DNA of 20,578 nt, from NCBI GenBank assembly GCA_905250055.1, contig CAJNOF010001387.1, positions 1 to 20,578 on the forward strand, given 5' to 3'. The notes under the pieces are model-generated. The model saw only the letters and a list, made by a program, of their open reading frames with translations. It was not told the origin of the DNA and ran no database searches. Position numbers and translations under genes: made by a program. The first letter of the stretch is position 1. Every line of letters starts with the position of its first letter. This document shows, piece by piece, positions 1 through 16,099 of the stretch. This DNA is from Rotaria sp. (taxonomy: Eukaryota).

Positions 1-84
1 CCACACCCACACCCACACCCACACACCCACACCAACACCCACACCCCACACACACCCACACCCACACCCACACTCACACCCACG
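1..84. repeat. Telomere-like irregular (CCCACA)n array, the C-rich strand of TGTGGG, at the extreme left end of the window
   Basis: Direct reading gives ccacacccacacccacaccc... with CA/CCA variants for 84 nt, then an abrupt switch to AT-rich unique sequence. The C-rich strand reading 5' to 3' inward is the orientation expected at a left chromosome end. TGTGGG is the telomeric repeat reported for bdelloid rotifers. Confidence 0.7.
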
Positions 85-346
85 AATTGTTATTGATTTT
101 CCTTCCTTGTTTATAATAATTTGAATCTATTCCCGACAAAGTAAGTTTTTCGGAAATTTTCTCATCATCAAAATGCTTAAACTTAATACCTAAACAAAAG
201 TTGACAATTTCATCAGTCTTCAACATATGTGAAAATCCTACAGAAAGCCAACCATATGTCGTTGTATATAATACAACAGTATTCAATGCGATCATTTCAA
301 ATAGAGTTTTATACAAATTGTATTTCGTCAAAAATGGAATATACTG
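74..346 (-). CDS. Terminal exon or fragment of a minus-strand gene that reads into the telomeric repeat; product unknown
   Basis: An open frame of 85+ codons on the minus strand is preceded, in minus orientation, by the acceptor-like ttaatttcag at plus 346. Its stop codon TGA is formed inside a variant telomeric unit (cactcaca). The annotated M in the ORF track is a TTG codon, not an ATG. A possible upstream exon lies at about 509-600 on the minus strand with a GTAAAT donor. I could assign no recognisable domain. Confidence 0.3.
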   Translation of the reverse strand, partial: QYIPFLTKYNLYKTLFEMIALNTVVLYTTTYGWLSVGFSHMLKTDEIVNFCLGIKFKHFDDEKISEKLTLSGIDSNYYKQGRKINNNSWV

Positions 347-615
347 AAATTAAATAGTAAGATTTATCAAAAGATTTTAAGATCGAACTTTAAGAACTCT
401 GTGTATTTTCACGAATTCATAATTAATGAACTGTGCATGCATCTTAACTTCTGTTGTCAGCTTTTAATCGATCCGTTTGTTTCGTTGATGCCAGTATTAA
501 TGATGAATTGCATTAGTGTTCTATTCCATGATTTACCTGAAACTCTACCGCATACTGATTTCGCTGACTTGTGCAATAACACAACACGTATACAATGTGC
601 ATACGTGTTGAGAAC

Positions 616-626
616 TATAAAAAAAA
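616..626 (+). promoter_or_regulatory. TATA-like element (ctataaaaaaaa), candidate core promoter of the PARP4-like gene if a 5' UTR intron ends at 843
   Basis: The motif is tataaaaaaaa. The ATG at 844 is immediately preceded by gattattttcag, an acceptor-like sequence, which suggests a 5' UTR intron. Confidence 0.2.
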
Positions 627-843
627 CACATTTCTATACTACTTTTCTTCTCTTTTTATCAAGCAGCAGATGAATGTATGAATCATCAAAATTTATAATG
701 CTAGTTTTGATACGATTTCACTCTAAAAGTGAAGCACAGACAATATTTATAATATTTTCTTTAAAGATATTAGTCAAGACGAAGGATAACAACTATAACG
801 ATTACATTCGTAGATTGGTTAGAAAGTTTTTGATTATTTTCAG

Positions 844-3800
844 ATGAAGTCGACTGCAGCATCGACTTCATTGTCATCACCATTCAATGGAAAAACTATT
901 GTACTTGAACTTGGTCGTGAAATTAGTTTTAAAGCTAAACAAGAATTAATCAAATATTTACAAGAACAACAAGCACATATTTCATATATTCTTACAGCTA
1001 GTGTATGTTTTTGTTTTATGTGGGATGAAGATGTCACTACATCTCAGTATTTTTAGACTGACTACGTTTTGATCACAAATAATGTAGATAACTATAAGAC
1101 ACGTCGTGCAAAACAACTTGGATTACCACTAGTTAATATTGAATATGTTTATGAATATCGTCGTTTACCACCTGGTCAAACAACGATCGATATAAACAAA
1201 TTTATCATGAAGTCAGTGGAAGATCAAGAAAATTTTACTAACACTGGTACTATATCCGTCATAGGTATGTATCTATCATATTTTTCAATCATATTTAAAA
1301 TGTTTATTTATTAGGACCTCGAGCTAATGCAATCAAAATCAATAAACTCGATTTAACTAAAATTAAAATTTGGAATTCAGATGATGCTAATTTACCTTGT
1401 TTCGATGAGTTAACACATTGTGAAGTTGCAAAATGGGCTATTTTTAAAGTATTGTTTTATTTAGTAGCTTTTGTTCTATCATACATATGACATTTATCAT
1501 AGGAAACGAATGATAATTCAGATGTGTACTTTGCACTTGAACTTCAAGTCATTCCTGAACAATACTATGATCGAACAATGAATGATTATCGAATACGATT
1601 TCGTTATGAAAAACAAACAATTATTAATGATGGACAACAAAAAAATAAAAAAGTATTAATACAATATGCATTCACTGATGATTCCTATGAACAACAACAA
1701 TTGTTTTCTACGTATTATTATCGAGTAGCTACAATGCCACGTGTTACACGAATTCGTGAGATGTTACCTGATAAATTAGGATCAAAACTATTGTTACGTG
1801 TATGTAAAAGAATAATTTTTTTTTTCATCTAAAAAACAATTAGTTTTAGTCTTTATTTACTCATCGTATCGATACACAAATACTTGATGAAAATGTCGGT
1901 CAATTAATCGAATCAATATGGTTAGAATCGATTGGTGATTTGAATAAAATGTTGAGCGTAGCGCCTGAATCAATCACTCTTAAAACAGTATATTTATTCA
2001 TTTTTCTATATTTAAATTCATTTTATTCTTTAATTATAATATAGATTATTGAAGCTGAAGCTGCATTACTTGAATTGAAAACAACGAATGATCCTGCTAC
2101 TGCACTTCGTTTCTATTCACTCATTCCTCATCGATCACAATATAATGTTGATCTTATAAAAAATCGTCGAGCATTAACAGAAAAAATTGATTTATGTCAA
2201 GTATGTATTATTTTATTCAATAGTTAGAAATAATCATTCGTTTGTTCAGATGCTTCGAGATATGCTCACAGTAAACGAATTAACAAATTGGAATGTTAAA
2301 GCACCAATCGAAGCCAAATATCGAGCATTAAAATGTCACATTGAAAATATCGATAGTTCAACACTAGAATTTAGAAATATTACTGAATTGATTCAATCAT
2401 CAACAGACAGGTAAGAAAAAAAAATAAAAGTTGTTTTTATAATGATAGGTTTATTCATTAGTGGTGAACAAATTGTTATTCATCAAATATTCAGTGTAGC
2501 TAAACAAACAGATGCAGTAAATTTTTGTACATCTATATCAAATCAACAGCAATTATTTCATGGATCAAAATATGCAAATTTTCTTGGAATTCTTTCACGG
2601 TAAAAAAAAATTCATTTCAATTTCTAAAACTAATAGAATTATACATATTCAGTGGTTTAGCAATGCCAAAAATGGTAGTAGAAGACTTAGGTGTCACACG
2701 TACTGATATAGGTTGTCTTGGTTATGGACTTTATTTTTCTGATTCTGCTTCAACATCTTTAAAATATACAACAGCAAGTACAACACGACCTGGTAGACGA
2801 TTGTTATGTATTTGCCAAGTAGCACTTGGTGAATCGGCTAATTATTATTCATTTGCACCAACTCTAGTCAAACCTCCTGATGGTTTTCATAGTACACATG
2901 GAGTTAAACGAATCGAAGAAAACAATTCAATGTTTATTGTAAGTAGATTGTAGAGAAAAAATTTCTTGTTAGTTTATATATCTGATTGAGAGAGAAAGAA
3001 AAGGTATGGTTTTTGCTTAGATTTAAATGACTCATATTAAGTTACACGACAAAAATTTGACAATTAATCTTCATTTCAGACTTTTTATCATTAATAATCT
3101 AACTTTAGGATAATGAATATGCAATCTATCAACTTGATCAACAACGTTTACTCTCTATTGTCGAAGTTTCATGGATACTACATGATAATTTAAATATTGA
3201 ATTAGAACGATTGCCAATTATTCATCATCAACAACATGCACTACAATTAAGTGAACATGGTAATAAGAATTAAGTAGTTTTTTATTAAAATGAAATTCAA
3301 TTTGATTATCTCTTATGTTCTAGACGAAGTTCCAATGATAATTGAAGATGAAGTTATTGAAATCGCCGAACAAGATTATGGTTTAATAAATCCATCATCG
3401 GGAAAACTTGTACCACTTAAATCATTTCATATTCGTGCTCAAATTATTGATACTACTGTTGAAGTAATTATATTAAATTTTTTTATTATTAGAGTCATAT
3501 TGTTTTTTTTTTTTTTCTAACATAAAAAGGTTGTTCTCTATCAAGTTTATCATAATACAAGTTCAATACCAATTGAAGCTAAATATGTATTTCCTCTTGA
3601 TGAAAATTCAGCTGTATGTGGTTTCGAAGCACATATCAATAATAAAGTAATAAAAGGTGTTGTCAAAGAAAAAGAACAAGCTAAAAAAGAATATCGAGAA
3701 GCAATTGAACAAGGACATGGTGCTTATTTGATGCATCAAGAACAAGCACAAGTATTTAGTGTAGCTGTTGGTAATTTACCAGCAAATAATGAAGTCATTA

Positions 3801-6800
3801 TTAAAATAACTTATGTTGCCGAATTAGAAATTGAAAATGGTGAAATTATATTTCGTCTACCAGCTAAAATGGCATCATGGCAATCGAAACAAGCACTCGA
3901 AAGTAAAGATCAATCAATCGTACGATCAATTGGTATTGCCGATGAAAAAGTTGAATTTAGTTTCAAAGCATCAATTCGAATGCCATATGAAATAATTAAA
4001 TTATTTTCACCAACACATCATCTTCGACGAAAATTAACTGATTGTATAGCAATGATTGAACTTATTGATAATGTTTTACTTGATCGAGATTTTGTTCTTT
4101 CGATAACACTTAAAACTGCTAATCTACCTCGATTATCAATTGAATCATTATTATTAGATAATGAAAATCAAACAACAATAACATCGAATAATAATGAATC
4201 TCAAGCATGTATGCTTACATTTTATCCACGATTTGAAACATTAACAAAGTCAAACGAACAAGTTGAACTTATTTTTATTATTGATGTATCCAATTCAATG
4301 GATGGTAGTCATGTACAACAAGCTAAACAAATAGCTCATTTATTTCTTACAAATTTGAAAGTCGACGATGGAAATACATACCTTAATATAGTTACATTTG
4401 GATCAGGTATATACAATGCTAATCTATAGAATTATTCTATTGTTTAAATTCGAATTATTTAGATAATGATGAATGTTTCCCAATTTCAACACCAGCAACC
4501 AAAGAAAATCTTGAGAAAGCTAAACATTTTGTTCTAGTTAGTAATTGATTTGTTTTATGTTACTATTGAAATATTATTATGTATTCTTTTATTTTAGCAT
4601 TCACTTGTTCATCGTGGTAATACAGATCTATATGCTGTTCTTCATCGTTATTCACTATTAACACCATTACCATCATCAAAATATGGTCGTCAATTTATTA
4701 TTCTATCTGATGGACATATTCATGATTTTCAATCGATTCTTGTTCTACTCGAAAATCAATCAACTATGCGTCAAGATCGTATATTTACATGTTCAATAGG
4801 TAATGTTGCTAATAAACATGGTTTGAAACAATTAGCAAATGGAGCACGTGGAGGTGGTCTAACGATTGTTTTCGATTCGAATTATCGATCAAAATGGAAA
4901 ACAAAAGTATTAAATCTTCTTGAACAAATTCGACAACCATGTGTAACAAGTATATCAATTGATTGGCATGGAAATCCAGATGAACAACAAAAATTTAATA
5001 TGCAAGCACCAAAAATAATTCGATCATTGTTTAATGGAATGCGATTAAATGTCTATCGATTTATACAAAATTGTCATAAGGCTACATTAACGGCTACTAT
5101 CGATGGACAAGAGTTTGTCACTACAGTATTTAGCAGTTCAACAACAATGACCAAAGGACGTATCTTGCATTGTTTAACGGCTCGAGCAATTATTGATGAT
5201 TATGAAAATGGAATGTTACATGTAGATGAGAGTGAAAATGAATTGATGAAAGTTCAATATAAACAAGATCTCATTGATCTAAGCATAAAACATTCGGTTG
5301 TCAGTACATATACGAGTTTTGTTGCTATCGAAGAACGTGATGCTAAAACAGATGCAAAAACTCTTCAACCAGGTTAGTAAAAAAGTTAAATAAAATAACA
5401 ACCTGGCCTCATAGTTGTCCTATTTTTCCTATATTTCCTATATTTTTGGAATCAGTCCTATAATGTCCTATTTTTTTTTAAATTTTCCTATATTCCTATA
5501 TTTAAAAAAAATGAAGGTTTGTGCCAGAAAAGTTGCATGTTTTGATAATAATAACTATAGATTTATGCGCTTTCAGTAATTTTATTAACATGTGAAACGA
5601 ATTATGTGGATAGTAGTGACAAGTATATAAGTACAACGTGTTTTATTCTTTCTATTCATTGTTTTGATGATTCACTTCTTGTATTTTTTACAACTATTAA
5701 TAGTTGTTTTTTTCTTTGTGCTTTACCCAAAATTCTTTATTAGAAAGATTGATATTTTCTGGATAATGTATGTGGAGTTTAATTATGTTAAATATTGAAA
5801 ATTATAATGAAAGTCGAAACTTTTACTATTCAAAGATATTTTAGATAATATTCAATTGATCAATTATGTGTTTTAATTTTTATTTCATCTCTTATAAAAA
5901 TTAGGATTGTTTCTATTGTACTCAAAAAGTGAGTACACTACTATAATCGGTCTGTATGTCCGTCCGGCCGTTTACACGATAACTATCGAAAAGAGAGTCA
6001 GATTGCGATGAAACTTTCTACATAATTCAGTCTTTAGAATATATCGGTCAAGTTCGAAGATGAGAAGGATCCGTCAAGAAATGGCTGTGCTATCAAAAAA
6101 ATTGTGATTTTTGGCCAGACTATCCCTGAGGGGGGGGGGGTACAGGGATCTTTCGAAAAAAAATTTTTTACTCAGAATTATTCACAAAACACATAAATCG
6201 ACTCAGTTTTTAACGCTGACCCTAAATCTGATGTTACTTTTGAACCAAATCATAGTTTTAATGTACTCAAAAAGTGAGTCCACTATAGAATTGATCAGTG
6301 TTTGCGGCCGGTCAGTTACGTGATAACTTTCGAAGGGAGAGTTAGATCCTGGTGAAATTTTCCACACAGTTCAATTTCATTAATCTTTCGGTCGAGTTCA
6401 AAGATGGATCTGATTGGATGGGCTCGTCCGAGTTATTGTAAAAATGCTGATTTATTCCTATGATTTTCGATGGAAAGATCGTTATATCGTCGCTTTTGTA
6501 AGAAACTTTTCCATCGGAGTTGAATAAAATCCCACCTGAATCATCTATAAGACAAGCTAAATTAAAGAAGAAGTAATTCGAACATTGTCAATGACCTCAT
6601 GAGCCCATAATTCGAGTTTTTTTAATCGGATCAGAGATATGCTACTTCGAGTTTCTCTGGATGAGAGAACTTGAATCTGTACTAGATTTGCTTCAAAGTC
6701 TCATCGGTTGATCAATAACCATTTAAATCAACTTATGACAAAAAATGGTTCTCTTAGAATAATTCAAGACGAGGGGTTCGAATGTGAGTTCTATTCTACT

Positions 6801-7887
6801 GTAAGTCTTTGTGGAGGGGCAGGAGTGAATAGAAGTCGTGTTTATAGAAAAGATGTCTGATGATAATTTTGCTGCTGATGCATTCTAGAATGACTCAATC
6901 TGCCTCATTCACTTTTTGTAGTACACTAAACTTTCGGATAAAATCCGAAGTTTCCGCATTTATTTTTTGACATTGATTCAAATTGTTTTTTTTGAAATAA
7001 ATTATGTGATATGCATATACATATATATATATGTATAGAATTTTATTCAAAACTGATGTCCTATAAATATCCTATATAGGAATAGATGATCCTATATAAA
7101 TGGCGTTTTAAAATCCTATATATTCCTATATGTTTACAAAGTGTCGCTACGAAGCCAGATAACAACTAATCGCTATCAGCAAACACAAAGATAATTGCTT
7201 TATTCTATTTATCTCAGGATACATTTTTTTTCATGCTATTCGTGCTTTTCAAACTCTTTTGATGAAAATTTTGATAAAGAAATTGAACTATGTAATTACT
7301 ATCTATTATAGGTGTTCATCTTCTTGATGTTATGCATGATCGAGATGTTGACTTATTACCATACATAGGATGGGATGGTAATATATCAAATTTAGATATA
7401 ATCAAACAGAAATTAATCGATGCACGTATTTCACTTGAAAGTACATCAATTCAAAGCAAAAAAGAATCTATAGTTGATATGGAAAAACTTTGTGAAAAGA
7501 TTTCTTATCGAGCAGGTGGTGATGCAAAATTTAATTTGATGATGACTGTCATACGTACGTATCGTTATACATTAAATGAGTATGAAAAAGCAAATGAAAT
7601 CGAAAATAAAATGCAAAGCGGTATGTTATATAATTATAGACAAATATTCATAAATTTTAATTCTAAAAGTTAAATAGATCTTAAAAATGAAATGATCAGT
7701 GCAACAACAGAAGAACGACAAGCACTACAACAACGATGTCAAGCTAATGATTTCATCATCGCCAGTGATGAAAAGTATGTAGAAGACAATAGAGGTGTTA
7801 ATAATAATCATAATAAAATTTCATGTTTATTTATTTTTTTATTGTAGTGAATCATTCGTCGATTTTGATGATACGATAAATGGTTAG
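844..7887 (+). CDS. PARP4: Vault poly(ADP-ribose) polymerase (PARP4/vPARP)-like protein of about 1379 aa in 17 exons, with domain order BRCT, PARP regulatory helical, PARP catalytic, VIT, vWA
   Basis: Exons (phase-consistent; total 4140 nt, which is 1380 codons): 844-1002, 1057-1264, 1315-1448, 1503-1799, 1850-1987, 2045-2200, 2250-2410, 2462-2599, 2653-2938, 3109-3259, 3324-3463, 3530-4406, 4463-4536, 4598-5372, 7312-7620, 7678-7774, 7848-7887 (TAG stop). Donors are GTATGT, GTAAGT, GTAAGA, GTTAGT or GTAATT. All introns are 47-67 bp except the 1.9 kb intron at 5373-7311. Domain motifs read from the translation: BRCT-like FNGKTIVLELG...TDYVLITNNVDNYKTRRAKQLGLPLVNIEYV; PARP helical ALRFYSLIPH; PARP catalytic LFHGSKYANFLGILSRG (H-G-S), GLYFSDSAS (Tyr) and DNEYAIYQ (catalytic Glu as in the YNEY of PARP1); VIT domain VCGFEAHINNKVIKGVVKEKEQAKKEYREAIEQG...VFSVAVGNLPANNEVIIKITYVAELE; vWA MIDAS-like IFIIDVSNSMDG...GNTDLYAVL. 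The exact 3' end is uncertain, since a GTTAGT donor overlaps the proposed stop. Confidence 0.85.
5417..5503. repeat. Cluster of TCCTATAT-like short repeats (left boundary of the intronic insertion)
   Basis: Read directly: gtcctatttttcctatatttcctatattttt...gtcctataatgtcctattttttttt...ttcctatattcctatattt. Confidence 0.6.
5928..6926. mobile_element. MITE or foldback-like internal element of about 1 kb with roughly 15-17 bp inverted termini and a diverged tandem duplication of a roughly 345 bp unit
   Basis: The left terminus at 5928-5949 is tgtactcaaaaagtgagtacac. It is itself a small hairpin (gtactc...gagtac). A direct copy sits at 6263-6284 (tgtactcaaaaagtgagtccac). The right terminus at 6910-6926 is cactttttgtagtacac, the reverse complement of gtgtactacaaaaagtg. 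Units 5928-6271 and 6263-6620 align at about 70 percent identity (ccggccg/ccggtc..gataact[at]tcgaa[ag]gagagt[ct]agat...tgaaa[ct]tt..ttcag..atcggtc[ag]agttc[ga]aagatg). Confidence 0.45.
6130..6140. repeat. Homopolymer G11 inside the intronic element
   Basis: ctgagggggggggggtacaggg is a GC-rich island in otherwise AT-rich sequence. Confidence 0.8.
7011..7036. repeat. (AT/TA)n microsatellite
   Basis: Read directly: atgcatatacatatatatatatgtat. Confidence 0.8.
7058..7132. repeat. Second cluster of TCCTATAT-like short repeats (right boundary), including a palindromic cctatatagg
   Basis: Read directly: gtcctataaatatcctatataggaatagatgatcctatataaatgg...aatcctatatattcctatatg, in the same orientation as the 5417-5503 cluster. 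Confidence 0.6.
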
Positions 7888-8617
7888 TGTAGATATTTGA
7901 TCTACTACCAAGTCAATTAACTAAAAGCAGAGCACTAATCTTGAACCTTTCGTATATCTTAGTATATAAGAAACTTTATTAAAGAGCAAATTGAGAGATA
8001 CAATATTCAATTCCATTCTTGAGATTTCACCTTTTGAATCAGTATATAGATGAAGCAACACTTTTAATGTTACTCAAAAGGATCTATTGATCTTTGAGTA
8101 GGAACTTATTTCGACTGAAAATCACCTATGAGAGTATATTTAATTTATTTTATCATATGCCTACTCTAGAATTAACTTTCTATTTAAAAAGAAAAAAAAA
8201 CAATGATAAAATTTATTAGTTTAATGGATTTTCTGACGTATTCTTCAAAATATGTTAAAATTTTGCTTATCTCATTGAGTTCAGTTCAAAAGTTCAAGAT
8301 AAACTTAAATTAAAATATGATTTTCAAAAAAATGATAGCTTTTTCTAATTTTTATGTTTAAAAAATACCTTAAACTACTTAACAGTCAATATTCATTCAA
8401 TCTCGTTAGTTCTATTTAATTATTTATGAATTCAAAGTAATATTTTACATTATTTTTCTAAAGTATTAGTCTTTTGTTACATTAATATATATGATTAAAT
8501 CTCATTATTTACATTTCTTTCATAGATATATATGTATATGAACAAATTTAATTTTAAAATAAGAGTTTGATTTCGTAGTAGAGATACAAACAATTTTGAC
8601 AAGTTTTACTTTTCAAT

Positions 8618-8958
8618 ACATATGGACGTGGGCAACCGACATGGTATCCCATTTTGATTCAGTTCTATAGTGAGGATAAAATATGCTAATGTCCGGGTCA
8701 TATGAGAGAGGATTCAAGATAATCTTGGTTTGGCTTGAACAACACCATGATTTACCGTTAGAATAAAGATGTAAAGCTAGAAGCTTATAGTGTTAGCTGA
8801 TAGCTTTTCTCGATTATTCTAACGATAAAATATGGTGTTGTTCAGGTCATACCAAAGTTATCTGGAATCCTTTCTCATATAACCCGGACAATAGTATGTT
8901 TTCTCCTCACTATAGGACTGAATCAAAATGGGATACCATGTCGGTTGCCCACGTCCAT
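8618..8958. repeat. Long near-perfect inverted repeat (hairpin or foldback) of about 340 bp, centred near 8785 (agctagaagctt)
   Basis: The outer arms atatggacgtgggcaaccgacatggtatcccattttgattcagttctatagtgagga (8620-8677) and tcctcactataggactgaatcaaaatgggataccatgtcggttgcccacgtccatat (8904-8958) are reverse complements with 1 mismatch in about 58 bp. The inner arms (about 90 bp each) are about 85 percent complementary. The structure ends about 60 bp upstream of the ATG at 9020. Confidence 0.85.
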
Positions 8959-9019
8959 ATATATGTTATAATTAATTTAATGTCCAAATTAATTACTGTA
9001 TATTTTTCATTAAGAGAAA

Positions 9020-12000: not shown

Positions 12001-14499
12001 CAAAAAAGTACCCTGATACCAGTATGTCACAGGAACTTTTAGGTACCAAAGTACTTGTAGGTACCTACAGGTACTTAAGTGGTACTTTGGCAAGTACCCT
12101 GCTGGAAAATACACAGTAATTGGATACCTCAAGGTACTGATCAAGTTCTGAATTGGGTACCATTGTATAGTATTTCTAAGTACCATGTTACCAAATTTTC
12201 AGTATCCCAGGATCGAACCTGATCTTTGACTCTCTAAACGTTTTCTTTTTCTTGAGATATTTTACTGAATTTTTTTTAAATTTTATTCAACTTAATTTTT
12301 TTATTCAATTTTAGTTCTTTTATTCAATTTAATTCTTTTTATCCAATTTAACTTTTTTCAATTCTAAACACTTATCAGATGCTATGTCGGGATCCGACTT
12401 GACTTGAGTTGATCGTAGACCACTTCAGGATAGTCCAATCTTAATTTACGACCAAGCTCGGCATTTTCTCCACTAAGAAATAGTCAAGAAATAATTTAGA
12501 AAAAAATTAGTATGAAAATAGATTAATTTCTTATGATTTATCGAGTTGTTTATATACAGTCATGCATAAAAAAGAAAGCGGTGAACGAATAGTTGCCACA
12601 CAGAACGCGACAAATTTCAGATACCTTGTCGAGCTTTCCTCAGTAAAGTTATAGACTTGAGTATCCATGCAGGTACTTATTCAGTAAATGTACTTTTACC
12701 GGTACCCCAAACAGTACCTACGTCAGTAAAATTACTGAGAATTTTCAAAGTACCTTTACTGGGTACCCTACTAGAGCTTTCTCAGTACATGGGTACCCTG
12801 AACTCAGTAATTTCTCTAGAGATATTACAAATACAAAAATGAATTTTCTACATGCTTGATAAATGTTTTCAAGAATTGTATCGTAATACATGAAACATTA
12901 AAAAAAATGAGTTTACTGATTAAATACCTCTTTTTTTTACTTTGTCCTTCTCAATATATTTGAATGAAATTCTATTAGAATCTATCAGTCGTTCTCTTTT
13001 AGTTGGGGCTTTAGCTGACCCCTACTATATGTACTATTCACCTGGTGCTAATTTACCGCCTATTTCTCGTAAGTTACAGTTAGAATGATATTTATTTATT
13101 TTTATTTTTGTTTGATATCATGAGATTTCTAATCAATTCAATATGGCATGAATTCATTTAGAGTCAACAACTGTTGGTACTGCTCCTCTACCACCTTTCC
13201 CACGAATGCCTCCACCACCACCTCCTCCACGAATGCCTCCACCACCTCCTCCACCATCTTTTCCACAAATGTATTCATCATATGCTCCACTGCCTCAAAA
13301 ATCAACAGTAGCATCAACAACGTCATTCTCACAAGGTGATTATTACCAACAGACTTCATTCGATAGAAACATCTTACAACTAAGTAACAGTAGAAGTTTC
13401 ATTTATTCATATCTATATCAGTTTTATTTTTCAGTTAAATTTCCCCATATTTTATTTTTATTTATTATCTTCTTTGAAAGTTAAACAGTTTTATGCATCA
13501 AAGAAAAATAGTATAACAAATATGTTAACATATGTTGAAGATTTCAGAATAGTGTTAAGTACTTAAAAATATAAGCAAAATACATATATTTCATTATATT
13601 AATTCGTTTCAAATCTATGATACTATCATTTTCAATATTTCTAAGGTTCATTCACTAGTCTTTTATGTTGTTAGCCAAACATTGCAATTAAATGTTTTAC
13701 TAACAAAAGAAAAGATCACTATAATGAATGTTGAATTAAGTATTCATTAGATTTCACCTATTTTTTCATTCTTGAGAACTGCAGATATGAATGCATGTGT
13801 AAAATTAGCCAAATGACTCTTTAATTGAATAATAACCGCAGAAACTAAATCCTCAAAGTATAAACTCGTGTTCAAGACTAAATTGGAGCAAGCTTACTAT
13901 TTGAGTGGTCACTTATAAAACTACTTTTCCTTTTGCAGCTCCTCAAATGGAACTTCCAAACGCACTTCAAGCACAATCATTGTTACTAGACGAGTCAGCA
14001 GCTCTATATGGTAGTGAAGGTAGTCGTATGGAATCTTCAGCGACACAAACAACAACAACAACAACAACAGCAATGGCATTACATCCTTGGGCAAGTACTA
14101 GTAAGTCTCATTCCCTATGAATTTCCTGGTTATCTCTGTGAATATAATATGAAGGTGGAAAAAGTTTGCCACGTAGTGCTCAACATGGCAAATCAATGAT
14201 TGTTGCCAAGAAATCACAAACTTCAATGGATGGTAAGTTAGTTGAGATCATTTATTTATTTACTCTAAGTTCTTCTCTACAGATGAAGAGAGATGCGATG
14301 AGCGAATTGATATGAAACGCGGTGCTTCCATGAAAAAGTCATTCGCCTTCATCGGAGTACGTACATTCATATGGAACCCTTTAATGAATATTTCGTTTTC
14401 TTCTAGAAGAAAGTGGACAACAGAAAGATGAGAAGTGGTCTTTTCAACGATGGAGAATCGCATTTTACAGCTTTTAAGAAGAAAACAATCACACCGTAA
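9020..14499 (+). CDS. Multi-exon gene encoding an acidic, proline-rich low-complexity protein with no recognisable domain; it may continue by splicing into the Hsp70 SBD exons that start at 14557
   Basis: Proposed exons: 9020-9149 (MILNKMYEDSSPMISDGDAEEEEGDDMGFGYFDDMPQSFCSIS), 9538-9606 (MKAGGPTIESVDEAEDMRFDLF), 10023-10157 (PEQEPSSISIQEASELIESDKRVDDMDWSVLDTMDESSIVYP), 10686-10823 (SVPHIPELRSRDSVGGSDLSYARFTDT), 10972-about 11062 (PVPAPPPPPPLFASTTMAPQLSTHTTMKQ), 11112-11221 (LPTKGRLPKPSSAKISMSESLIRPLGSINYSMAQPQ), 13003-13068, 13162-13335 (alternatively to 13383; FPRMPPPPPPPRMPPPPPPPSFPQMYSSYAPLPQK), 13939-14100 (poly-Thr from (ACA)n), 14155-14232, 14283-14356, 14407-14499 (TAA). Donors are GTAAGT, GTATGC or GTACGT, and phases are consistent except at the 5/6 junction, which needs a weak GTCTGT donor at 11063. 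The 5' introns are unusually long (390-1780 bp). Whether this is one gene, and the exact boundaries, are uncertain. Confidence 0.5.
11993..12195. repeat. GTAC/GGTACC-rich diverged repeat block in the 1.78 kb intron (copy 1)
   Basis: gggtacccaaaaaagtaccctgataccagtatg...ggtaccaaagtacttgtaggtacctacaggtacttaagtggtactttggcaagtaccctg contains more than 12 GTAC cores, several of them as the palindromic GGTACC. Confidence 0.6.
12670..12810. repeat. GTAC/GGTACC-rich diverged repeat block (copy 2, same orientation as copy 1)
   Basis: ccggtaccccaaacagtacctacgtcagtaaaat...caaagtacctttactgggtaccctactagag...catgggtaccctgaactcagtaat. Compare ggtaccccaaacagtacct here with ggtacccaaaaaagtaccct in copy 1. Confidence 0.55.
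14046..14069 (+). repeat. Coding (ACA/AAC)n trinucleotide microsatellite giving a poly-Thr run
   Basis: acaaacaacaacaacaacaacaacag translates in frame as TQTTTTTTTA. Confidence 0.8.
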
Positions 14500-14556: not shown

Positions 14557-16099
14557 CATTCAATCATCAATAGAACTATGTTCAATAGTTGACGAATCTG
14601 TAGATAATATCCTTCTTCTCGATGTTTGTCCACTTGGTCTTGGTATTGAAGATATTCATGGTCAAATGCACACATTTATTCGTCGTAATACTACCATTCC
14701 AACATGTACACAATTCTATCCAATATTCACCAATGCTTATGCCTATCAAATAACAGCTACTATTCGTATATTTGAAGGCGAACACAATCTTACAAAATAC
14801 AATGTATGCATATGCAGTTTTCGCAATTTAATAGCTTCTTTTTTTTATTGTAGAATTTTTTGGGTGAGTTTAACCTTTGTGGTCTGACGAGTAATTATGC
14901 TGCTCAGACACTTGAAATCTCTATTCGAATGGATCTTGATGCTAATGGTATACTTCATGTCGACGCTGAAGAAACACGTTCGGGTGCCAAAGCTTCCTTT
15001 ACTATCACATCTAATGATCATCAAAGTATAATAATTCTATAATTATTTGATATCGTAATCAAATCGTATTTATATTTATGTAGGATTAACAAAAGATGAT
15101 ATTGAGCGACATATTACATATGTTAACAGTGATCCAAGTTTTGCAGCTAAATCAGGTGAGTCCGAAAAATATAAATGATATTTAATTATTATTATTATTT
15201 TCTAGTTTATGATCGCAAATCCAATGATCCATTGTACAAGGTTTCTACTATGACATTTTTTTTTCTCAGTTCAGCCATTTACTTCTCGGATATTTTTTTA
15301 GCTCGATGGTGAAACTGAATCTGTACTACACAATTTTTCTGGTGAAACCATGGATTCATGTGGTAATTTATTAATTGTCTTTATAGAAAACGATAATATT
15401 TCAATTTAGATCAAATGTCTAACGCACCTCTTCTTAGTAAACTGAAAGATGTTCGATCTTCTGCAACCATGATTGAAGAACTTTTCAAACTTCAATCTAA
15501 GGTTACATGATTTTGAAATTTCATTAAATATTTATTGTTTTGTATTTAATTCGAATATAGGATGGATCGTTTACATTGAATAAAGATTTAGCTGATGTAT
15601 TTCAAATTGATGTTGGTACTTTTAATGGTCTTGAAAATTACTTACGTGAACAAGGTTTCAACTCATTCGGTACTGTTTAATAGTTTATTATTAACCTATA
15701 GAAATATGAGATTTTTCGTTCTTTTTAGCATTGAATATACGGAATGAAATACTTTGTTTAATTGGCACAGGTGTTATTCTTATTTGGCTTACTCTTCAAA
15801 CACTAGTGTCACAACAAAATACATTTCAATTTTTATTTGATATTGAACAAATGAAAGTAATCAATGGTTTTTTTTTGTTAATTTTTCATTTCCTACATTG
15901 ATTTCTATATATATTGAAGATTCATCTTTGCAATCATTTACCTGCTAATGTGAACCATCAAATAAATAAAGCGATCGAATTCTATCAACGAACAAATCAA
16001 CGTATTGACCTGTATTGCCAACAATTAGAACTAAGTGATTCATCATGGAATATGTTTATTCAGCGTTTACTTATTGGCGTCGATCGCAGCCGCAGCTAA
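14557..16099 (+). CDS. Divergent Hsp70-family substrate-binding domain (SBD-beta and start of lid) plus a novel C-terminal region; no nucleotide-binding domain present
   Basis: Exons: 14557-14803, 14854-15025, 15084-15155, 15206-15240, 15302-15362, 15410-15501, 15561-15654, 15771-15856, 15920-16099 (TAA). The translation SIVDESVDNILLLDVCPLGLGIEDIHGQMHTFIRRNTTIPTCTQFYPIF...IRIFEGEHNLTKYNNFLGEFNLCGL...EISIRMDLDANGILHVDAEETRSGAKASFTITSNDHQRLTKDDIERHITYV lines up with canonical Hsp70 [37 protein letters not shown]...[23 protein letters not shown]...IEVTFDIDANGILNVSA...[20 protein letters not shown]. The first in-frame ATG (14666) falls inside the beta-sandwich, so a separate start is unlikely. 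The acceptor at 14556 is in phase 2 and matches a GTAAAT donor at 14496, which overlaps the TAA of the upstream gene. Downstream exons are phase-consistent but use weak donors (GTTTCT, GTTACA, GTTTCA). Confidence 0.65.

Follow-up and report, generated by a model that had tools for sequence, protein, structure and literature searches.

The first 83 bases of the window, the 20,578-nucleotide stretch of Rotaria sp. DNA that was analysed as a whole, consisted of telomeric repeat joined directly to unique sequence. This junction was best explained as an ordinary boundary between telomere and unique sequence, a chromosome end or the relic of one, with a chance open reading frame beside it (probability about 0.68). 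Positions 1–83 would be the innermost repeats of a bdelloid (TGTGGG)n array of telomerase type, seen from the C-strand, at a place where a chromosome end, present or former, borders on unique chromosomal DNA. The array would cap this end, or would once have capped it. Positions 84–495 would form a non-coding spacer, followed at 496–843 by the conserved promoter or leader of an intact PARP4-like gene whose transcription leads away from the end. On the minus strand, the frame 349..77 would seem to run into the telomere only because the telomeric repeat has no stops. The first-pass annotation had seen in this frame the signature of a gene broken and capped by de novo telomere addition, with an interstitial telomeric tract as the alternative. 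The broken gene was not supported, as neither a homologue nor a coding signal was found. Since no gene was shown to be truncated, nothing sets the junction apart from any ordinary telomere/subtelomere boundary. The features of the region were assigned as follows.

Positions 1..83, G-strand (TGTGGG)n on the minus strand and C-strand (CCCACA)n on the plus strand: irregular telomeric repeat, by sequence reading, TRF and probe count.
Positions 74..76, minus strand: the TGA that closes the open frame, part of the variant unit TGTGAG (TCA on the plus strand).
Positions 77..349, minus strand: open frame of 91 codons, regarded as a chance ORF; a candidate 'exon' starting behind the AG at 345-344 would span 343..77.
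Positions 83..84, no strand: junction between telomeric repeat and unique DNA, by direct reading (G-strand ...ACAATTC/GTGGGTGTGAG...).
Positions 84..495, no strand: unique AT-rich spacer of 28–30% GC, with no similarity to the upstream region of any relative.
Positions 496..843, plus strand: conserved block in front of the PARP4-like gene, taken as its promoter / 5' leader, by similarity to relatives.
Positions 844..1005, plus strand: PARP4-like gene, coding exon 1; the gene extends to at least ~7.8 kb.

The tract was recovered by TRF over 1–83 with a period of 6, 13.7 copies, 85% matches and 7% indels. The probe CCCACACCCACA, with at most one mismatch, gave nine matches, all on the plus strand and within 6–78, against 0.01 expected from dinucleotide-preserving shuffles, and it matched nowhere else in the window. 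Isolated TGTGGG hexamers outside the tract were found only twice in 20.5 kb, at 1019 and 16140. Read on the G-strand from the junction outwards, the tract was composed of GTGGG, TGTGAG, three copies of TGTGGG, TGTGTGTGGGG, TGTGGG, TGTTGG, TGTGGG, TGTGTGGG, two copies of TGTGGG and TGTGG. Nine perfect hexamers were present, together with the variants TGTGTGGG, TGTTGG, TGTGTGTGGGG and TGTGAG, and the first base of the window fell in the middle of a repeat unit. The G-strand pointed 5' to 3' toward the left edge of the window, which is the orientation of a left chromosome end, provided that the left edge is an end. An irregular CCCACA-type repeat in left-end orientation had been described in the first-pass annotation, and this description was borne out by TRF, by the probe count and by the presence of the C-strand on the plus strand. 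The length given there, 84 nt, was reduced to 83, as base 84 (g on the plus strand, C on the G-strand) is non-telomeric.

The telomere unit of bdelloid rotifers is TGTGGG (PMC7943196, PMC8494291). The (TGTGGG)n repeat is attributed to Gladyshev and Arkhipova (2007) in a citing passage of PMC7943196, and every scaffold of the A. vaga AV20 assembly carries TGTGGG at its ends (PMC8494291). A bdelloid host was indicated by the relatives of the neighbouring gene, the best named of which are from Rotaria, and the 29% GC content and the short introns of the window were consistent with it. The tract 1–83 is a bdelloid telomeric repeat, since its unit, tandem arrangement, orientation and host all fit. 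It shares with the (TGTGGG)n ends of bdelloids the same hexamer, a tandem array, a G-strand running outwards at the edge of the sequence and the bdelloid host, whereas only 83 nt are visible here, the units are irregular and the terminal position is inferred. No telomere dimer was found in ~140 kb of related loci, so that tracts of this kind are not a dispersed feature of ordinary DNA.

The window begins within the tract, from which we infer that position 1 lies at or close to the end of the contig or that the tract is part of a much longer array. A random window boundary would fall inside an isolated tract of ~84 nt less than 1% of the time, and the right end of the window was ordinary unique sequence. 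The end of a contig is no proof of the end of a chromosome. In A. vaga the subtelomere is rich in transposons and foreign genes, whereas here core-like genes followed immediately, with no transposons or foreign genes between them and the telomeric repeat.

The irregularity of the tract bears on whether the junction is an artefact. A chimeric read or contig join, or a neotelomere carried by only some of the animals or cells and assembled as a contig end, could give the same picture, with the irregular units as uncorrected long-read errors. Irregular units ran through the whole tract (85% match, 7% indels), which is also seen where contig ends are poorly polished. Real telomeres, however, commonly have degenerate inner units, and the variants in the tract included substitutions besides indels. 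Transient, heterogeneous neotelomeres have been proposed for A. vaga (PMC13564844). An artefactual origin of the junction was considered very unlikely on this evidence.

The orientation of the tract fits a retroelement-extended end equally as well as a true chromosome end. Bdelloid chromosome ends are often extended by Athena/Terminon elements (PMC6431247, PMC2861651), which are endonuclease-deficient Penelope-like retroelements whose sense strand ends with a hammerhead ribozyme and then (ACACCC)n, the latter pairing with the G-overhang (PMC6431247). A former end at position 84 might thus have been extended later by such an element lying to the left of the window, which would make the tract interstitial while the ORF would still be noise. 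An (ACACCC)n sequence on the plus strand, reading inwards, is in the orientation found at the 3' end of the element (PMC6431247), and an element of this type leaves a junction in which the repeat has the same strand and orientation towards host DNA as the tract (PMC6431247; PMC2861651). Bdelloid subtelomeres also typically have short telomeric stretches between retroelements and host genes (PMC2861651, PMC6431247). The second unit from the junction, CTCACA on the C-strand, loosely recalls the (TCACCC)n tails of some Terminons, but the variant reads TCACAC rather than TCACCC. Any element would, moreover, have to lie wholly to the left of position 1. The 20.5-kb window itself contained no hammerhead ribozyme, reverse transcriptase or other retroelement signal, as Rfam gave no match and the survey of ORFs and Pfam domains gave none either. 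An interstitial tract of this kind was regarded as a tentative alternative, with perhaps a quarter of the weight of belief placed on it.

The repeat adjoined unique DNA directly at 83/84, and the sequence at 84–495 was unique and free of repeats. On the G-strand, the last unique bases were TTC and the first added bases were GTGGG. No G/T-rich seed was present at this point, although a seed is not strictly required. Chromosome healing, the formation of a neotelomere at a double-strand break, is known from yeast, ciliates, nematodes and mammals. The junction resembles healed ends in that telomeric repeat is joined directly to unique, non-subtelomeric DNA. The documented cases, however, require that the interrupted sequence continue in an unbroken copy, whereas the gene supposed to be interrupted here had no homologue and no coding signature.

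The healing explanation in its full form holds that a double-strand break cut a minus-strand gene after its N-terminal exon or exons, that telomerase added TGTGGG de novo, and that the truncated ORF now reads into the repeat as far as the stop in a variant unit. It depends on the minus-strand frame 349..77, which was bounded upstream by a TAA at 352..350 and ended in ...NNN-S-W-V-stop. An acceptor-like sequence, ttaatttcag, was located at 353..344 on the minus strand, in phase with the frame. The first-pass annotation had correctly noted this acceptor, although the AG lies at 345-344 and not at 346. Sites of the form TTT[CT]AG were found 30 times on the plus strand and 19 times on the minus strand of the window, and this frequency of T-rich ...YAG sites weakens the acceptor-like sequence as evidence for a gene. 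A possible ATG...GTGAAA mini-exon was present 69 nt upstream of the frame and would fit the short introns of bdelloids. The in-phase acceptor together with this mini-exon is plausible and counts against a chance frame, as it allows models with a short upstream exon and intron.

The stop of the frame carried less information than had been supposed. The canonical unit TGTGGG encodes C-G, V-G or W-V and is stop-free in all three frames, so that any frame reaching the junction stays open until it meets a variant unit. The earlier observation that the frame has no native stop and is closed by a variant unit was accurate (TGA in TGTGAG), but it is uninformative, and a stop in a variant unit is expected of any frame, whether or not a gene had been broken there. 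The length of the frame was the point that remained. A stop-free run of at least 264 nt towards a random point, in any of three frames, had a probability of 0.005 in an order-2 Markov simulation, and the same run beside a random point on the minus strand of the window itself had a probability of 0.011. An open run of this length beside the junction is uncommon and longer than expected for noise, which speaks against the ordinary-boundary reading, yet on its own it is not decisive.

The frame was searched for homologues at several levels. No Pfam family matched it at E<=10, and a word-indexed search gave no candidate among 5.8 billion clusters. When 1.84 billion representative proteins, a collection that includes ORFs from rotifer assemblies, were scanned exhaustively with HMMER, none matched at E<=0.001. 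An exact 23-mer taken from the ORF was absent from the metagenome contigs. Neither in 16 related rotifer loci, all of which carry the PARP4-like gene, nor in the rest of the window did tblastn or tblastx detect a counterpart. When positions 1–843 were compared with these 16 loci by tblastx and blastn, only the promoter block 496–843 matched. The Pfam, cluster, HMMER and related-locus searches together thus returned what the first-pass annotation had named as evidence against its own proposal, an ORF that is non-conserved noise with no homologue.

Codon usage was examined with a model built from ~1,090 codons in homology-supported exons of this window, which represent two or three soluble-protein genes. 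The model was conditioned on the absence of stops, so that an open frame received no credit for its openness. The frame scored -0.117 nats per codon against non-coding trinucleotide frequencies, a total log-likelihood ratio of -10.3 nats. The model discriminates less well where a gene is hydrophobic or young, and the N-terminal half of the ORF is hydrophobic. All eight verified exons were positive in leave-one-out scoring (+0.11 to +0.28 nats per codon), while 41 of the 42 chance ORFs of at least 50 codons from presumed non-coding parts were negative, over a range of -0.40 to +0.15. The score of the frame lay in the upper part of this chance-ORF distribution. As the partly hydrophobic character of the ORF could lower its codon score, the synonymous component was scored apart, and it gave -0.052 for the ORF, +0.07 to +0.16 for the exons and -0.14 +/- 0.11 for the chance ORFs. 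G+C at third positions was 27% in the ORF and 13% in the exons. The small codon training set and the hydrophobic N-terminal half of the ORF temper this result and count to that extent against the ordinary-boundary reading. A single-sequence AlphaFold2 prediction of the ORF gave one long helix of low confidence (pLDDT 60.6, pTM 0.30), which was uninformative either way. The frame 349..77 was judged to be a chance open frame in AT-rich spacer, with codon usage of the non-coding type.

A second ORF, of 90 aa, was found at 401-673 on the plus strand and was rejected as a gene; its codon score was -0.24 per codon, it had no Pfam match and it overlapped the conserved promoter block. The occurrence of two ORFs of at least 90 codons in one 760-bp non-coding spacer is mildly unusual.

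Taken over the whole of this evidence, a healed break in a real gene appears improbable. The open frame is longer than chance would lead one to expect, the acceptor-like site is in phase and admits short upstream exon and intron models, the repeat directly adjoins unique sequence, and the region is internal in relatives. Neotelomere signatures have also been reported at deletion breakpoints in Adineta vaga (PMC13564844). Against these points stand the failure of the protein and related-locus searches to return a homologue of the ORF, the non-coding type of its codon usage and third-position composition, and the lack of a confidently predicted fold. In addition, only ~150 nt (350-495) separate the frame from the promoter block, so that a promoter and a first exon would have little space, and no microhomology was seen at the junction. 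A very young orphan gene could look like the frame 349..77. A recent neotelomere that telomerase formed ~410 nt upstream of the PARP4-like promoter block and that cut a lineage-specific orphan gene, through a break in a normally internal and gene-dense region of a desiccation-tolerant bdelloid, is given only about the chance of one outcome in ten. If it were true, it would be a case of naturally fixed chromosome healing, which has so far been inferred mainly from irradiated or mutation-accumulation lines. Neotelomere formation has been suggested for the mutation-accumulation (ME) lines of A. vaga (PMC13564844).

The loci of relatives were compared with the window to place the junction in its genomic context. 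Similarity to relatives began at 496-500 and ran to the ATG of the PARP4-like gene; further left, beyond 496, there was no conservation. The upstream block 496–843 was common to five relatives and is intact in the window. Within it, the motif TTGTGCAATAAC (569-580) was kept in all four of the relatives checked for the motif. The acceptor-like sequence TTATTTTCAG (834-843) stood directly before the ATG in the window and in the related loci L001 and L002, but not in L003. From the sequence, its position suggests a 5'-UTR intron or spliced-leader trans-splicing.

The upstream neighbour of the PARP4-like gene differed in every relative examined, except for two loci with identical sequence, and synteny therefore cannot name a gene lost at the junction. 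The downstream order was conserved in L003, which also matched the window at 14612-16077. From the PARP4-like locus to the upstream end of the contig, the distance was at least 88 kb in L003 and ~65 kb in L001. The orthologous regions in relatives were thus internal, lying 60–95 kb or more from a contig end. The core-like genes beside telomeric repeat here, with no subtelomeric transposons between, hint at a lineage-specific terminal loss, which counts against the ordinary-boundary reading. This arrangement is lineage-specific and compatible with a terminal loss at some time, but it does not demonstrate that a gene was cut. A pogo/Tc5-type transposase (HTH_Tnp_Tc5 + DDE_1) was located at 2664-4014 of L001, ~2 kb upstream of the PARP4-like gene. 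This transposase and the differing upstream neighbours mark the region upstream of the PARP4-like gene as a point of recurrent rearrangement. In L002, an odd tRNA-like gene with a two-base anticodon (ARAGORN) was found on the minus strand at 3195-3270, immediately upstream of the conserved block. The window contained no equivalent of this gene, and no tRNA was found there.

The PARP4-like gene begins with an ATG at 844, ~760 bases from the telomeric tract, and reads away from it. The first-pass annotation had placed a PARP4-like gene within 1 kb of telomeric sequence, and both the position of this ATG and the presence of PARP catalytic, VIT and VWA domains agreed with it. Above the Pfam cut-offs, the ORF matched PF00644 (E=2.5e-10) and PF00092 (E=4.5e-06), and the match to PF08487 (VIT) was partial and below the Pfam cut-off (E=5.6e-04). 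Precomputed Pfam hits of the homologues list VIT and VWA, and the order PARP catalytic, VIT, VWA was found. The closest relatives were ORFs with 80–85% identity, and others were annotated as poly [ADP-ribose] polymerase; the best named relatives were from Rotaria sp. Silwood1 and R. sordida, with 80% identity. The gene appears intact. It resembles PARP4, the vault poly(ADP-ribose) polymerase, in having a PARP catalytic domain followed by VIT and VWA, but it has no part in the mechanism of the telomere junction.

Were the tract terminal, it would mark the end of a chromosome, and the ~760 bp between telomere and conserved PARP4-like gene would be an unusually short distance. A terminal tract would then be useful for scaffolding and would be a minor data point on the dynamics of bdelloid chromosome ends. 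Earlier work on bdelloids has already described the telomere repeat, short internal tracts, ends extended by retroelements and the formation of neotelomeres. The junction raises no new question, and the truncated gene that a documented healing event needs was unsupported.

Several other features were observed in the window. About 1.9 kb at 5400-7140 had no equivalent where relatives have the corresponding intron of the PARP4-like gene, the interval 5380 to 7298 of the window corresponding to 11716 to 11752 in L003 and to 2282 to 2390 in L004. This insert was flanked by TCCTATAT(T) sub-repeats at 5418-5503 and 7060-7135 and contained a duplicated 30-nt hairpin-like unit, at 5911-5940 and 6256-6285. 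Its GC content was higher (0.37), and it contained no ORF longer than 70 aa. By these sequence characters, the insert is probably a non-autonomous transposable element in the intron. A palindrome was found at 8616-8964, with two 170-nt arms (8616-8785 and 8795-8964) that were 86% complementary and separated by a 9-nt gap. This palindrome, which lies within the region of the PARP4-like gene, may represent a foldback or MITE-like element. Finally, a 27-nt coding tandem repeat (CTCCACCACCACCTCC.CCACGAATGC) was located at 13183-13272, where it encodes a proline-rich PPPPPPPRMPPPPPPP stretch in the plus-strand ORF 13206-13484.
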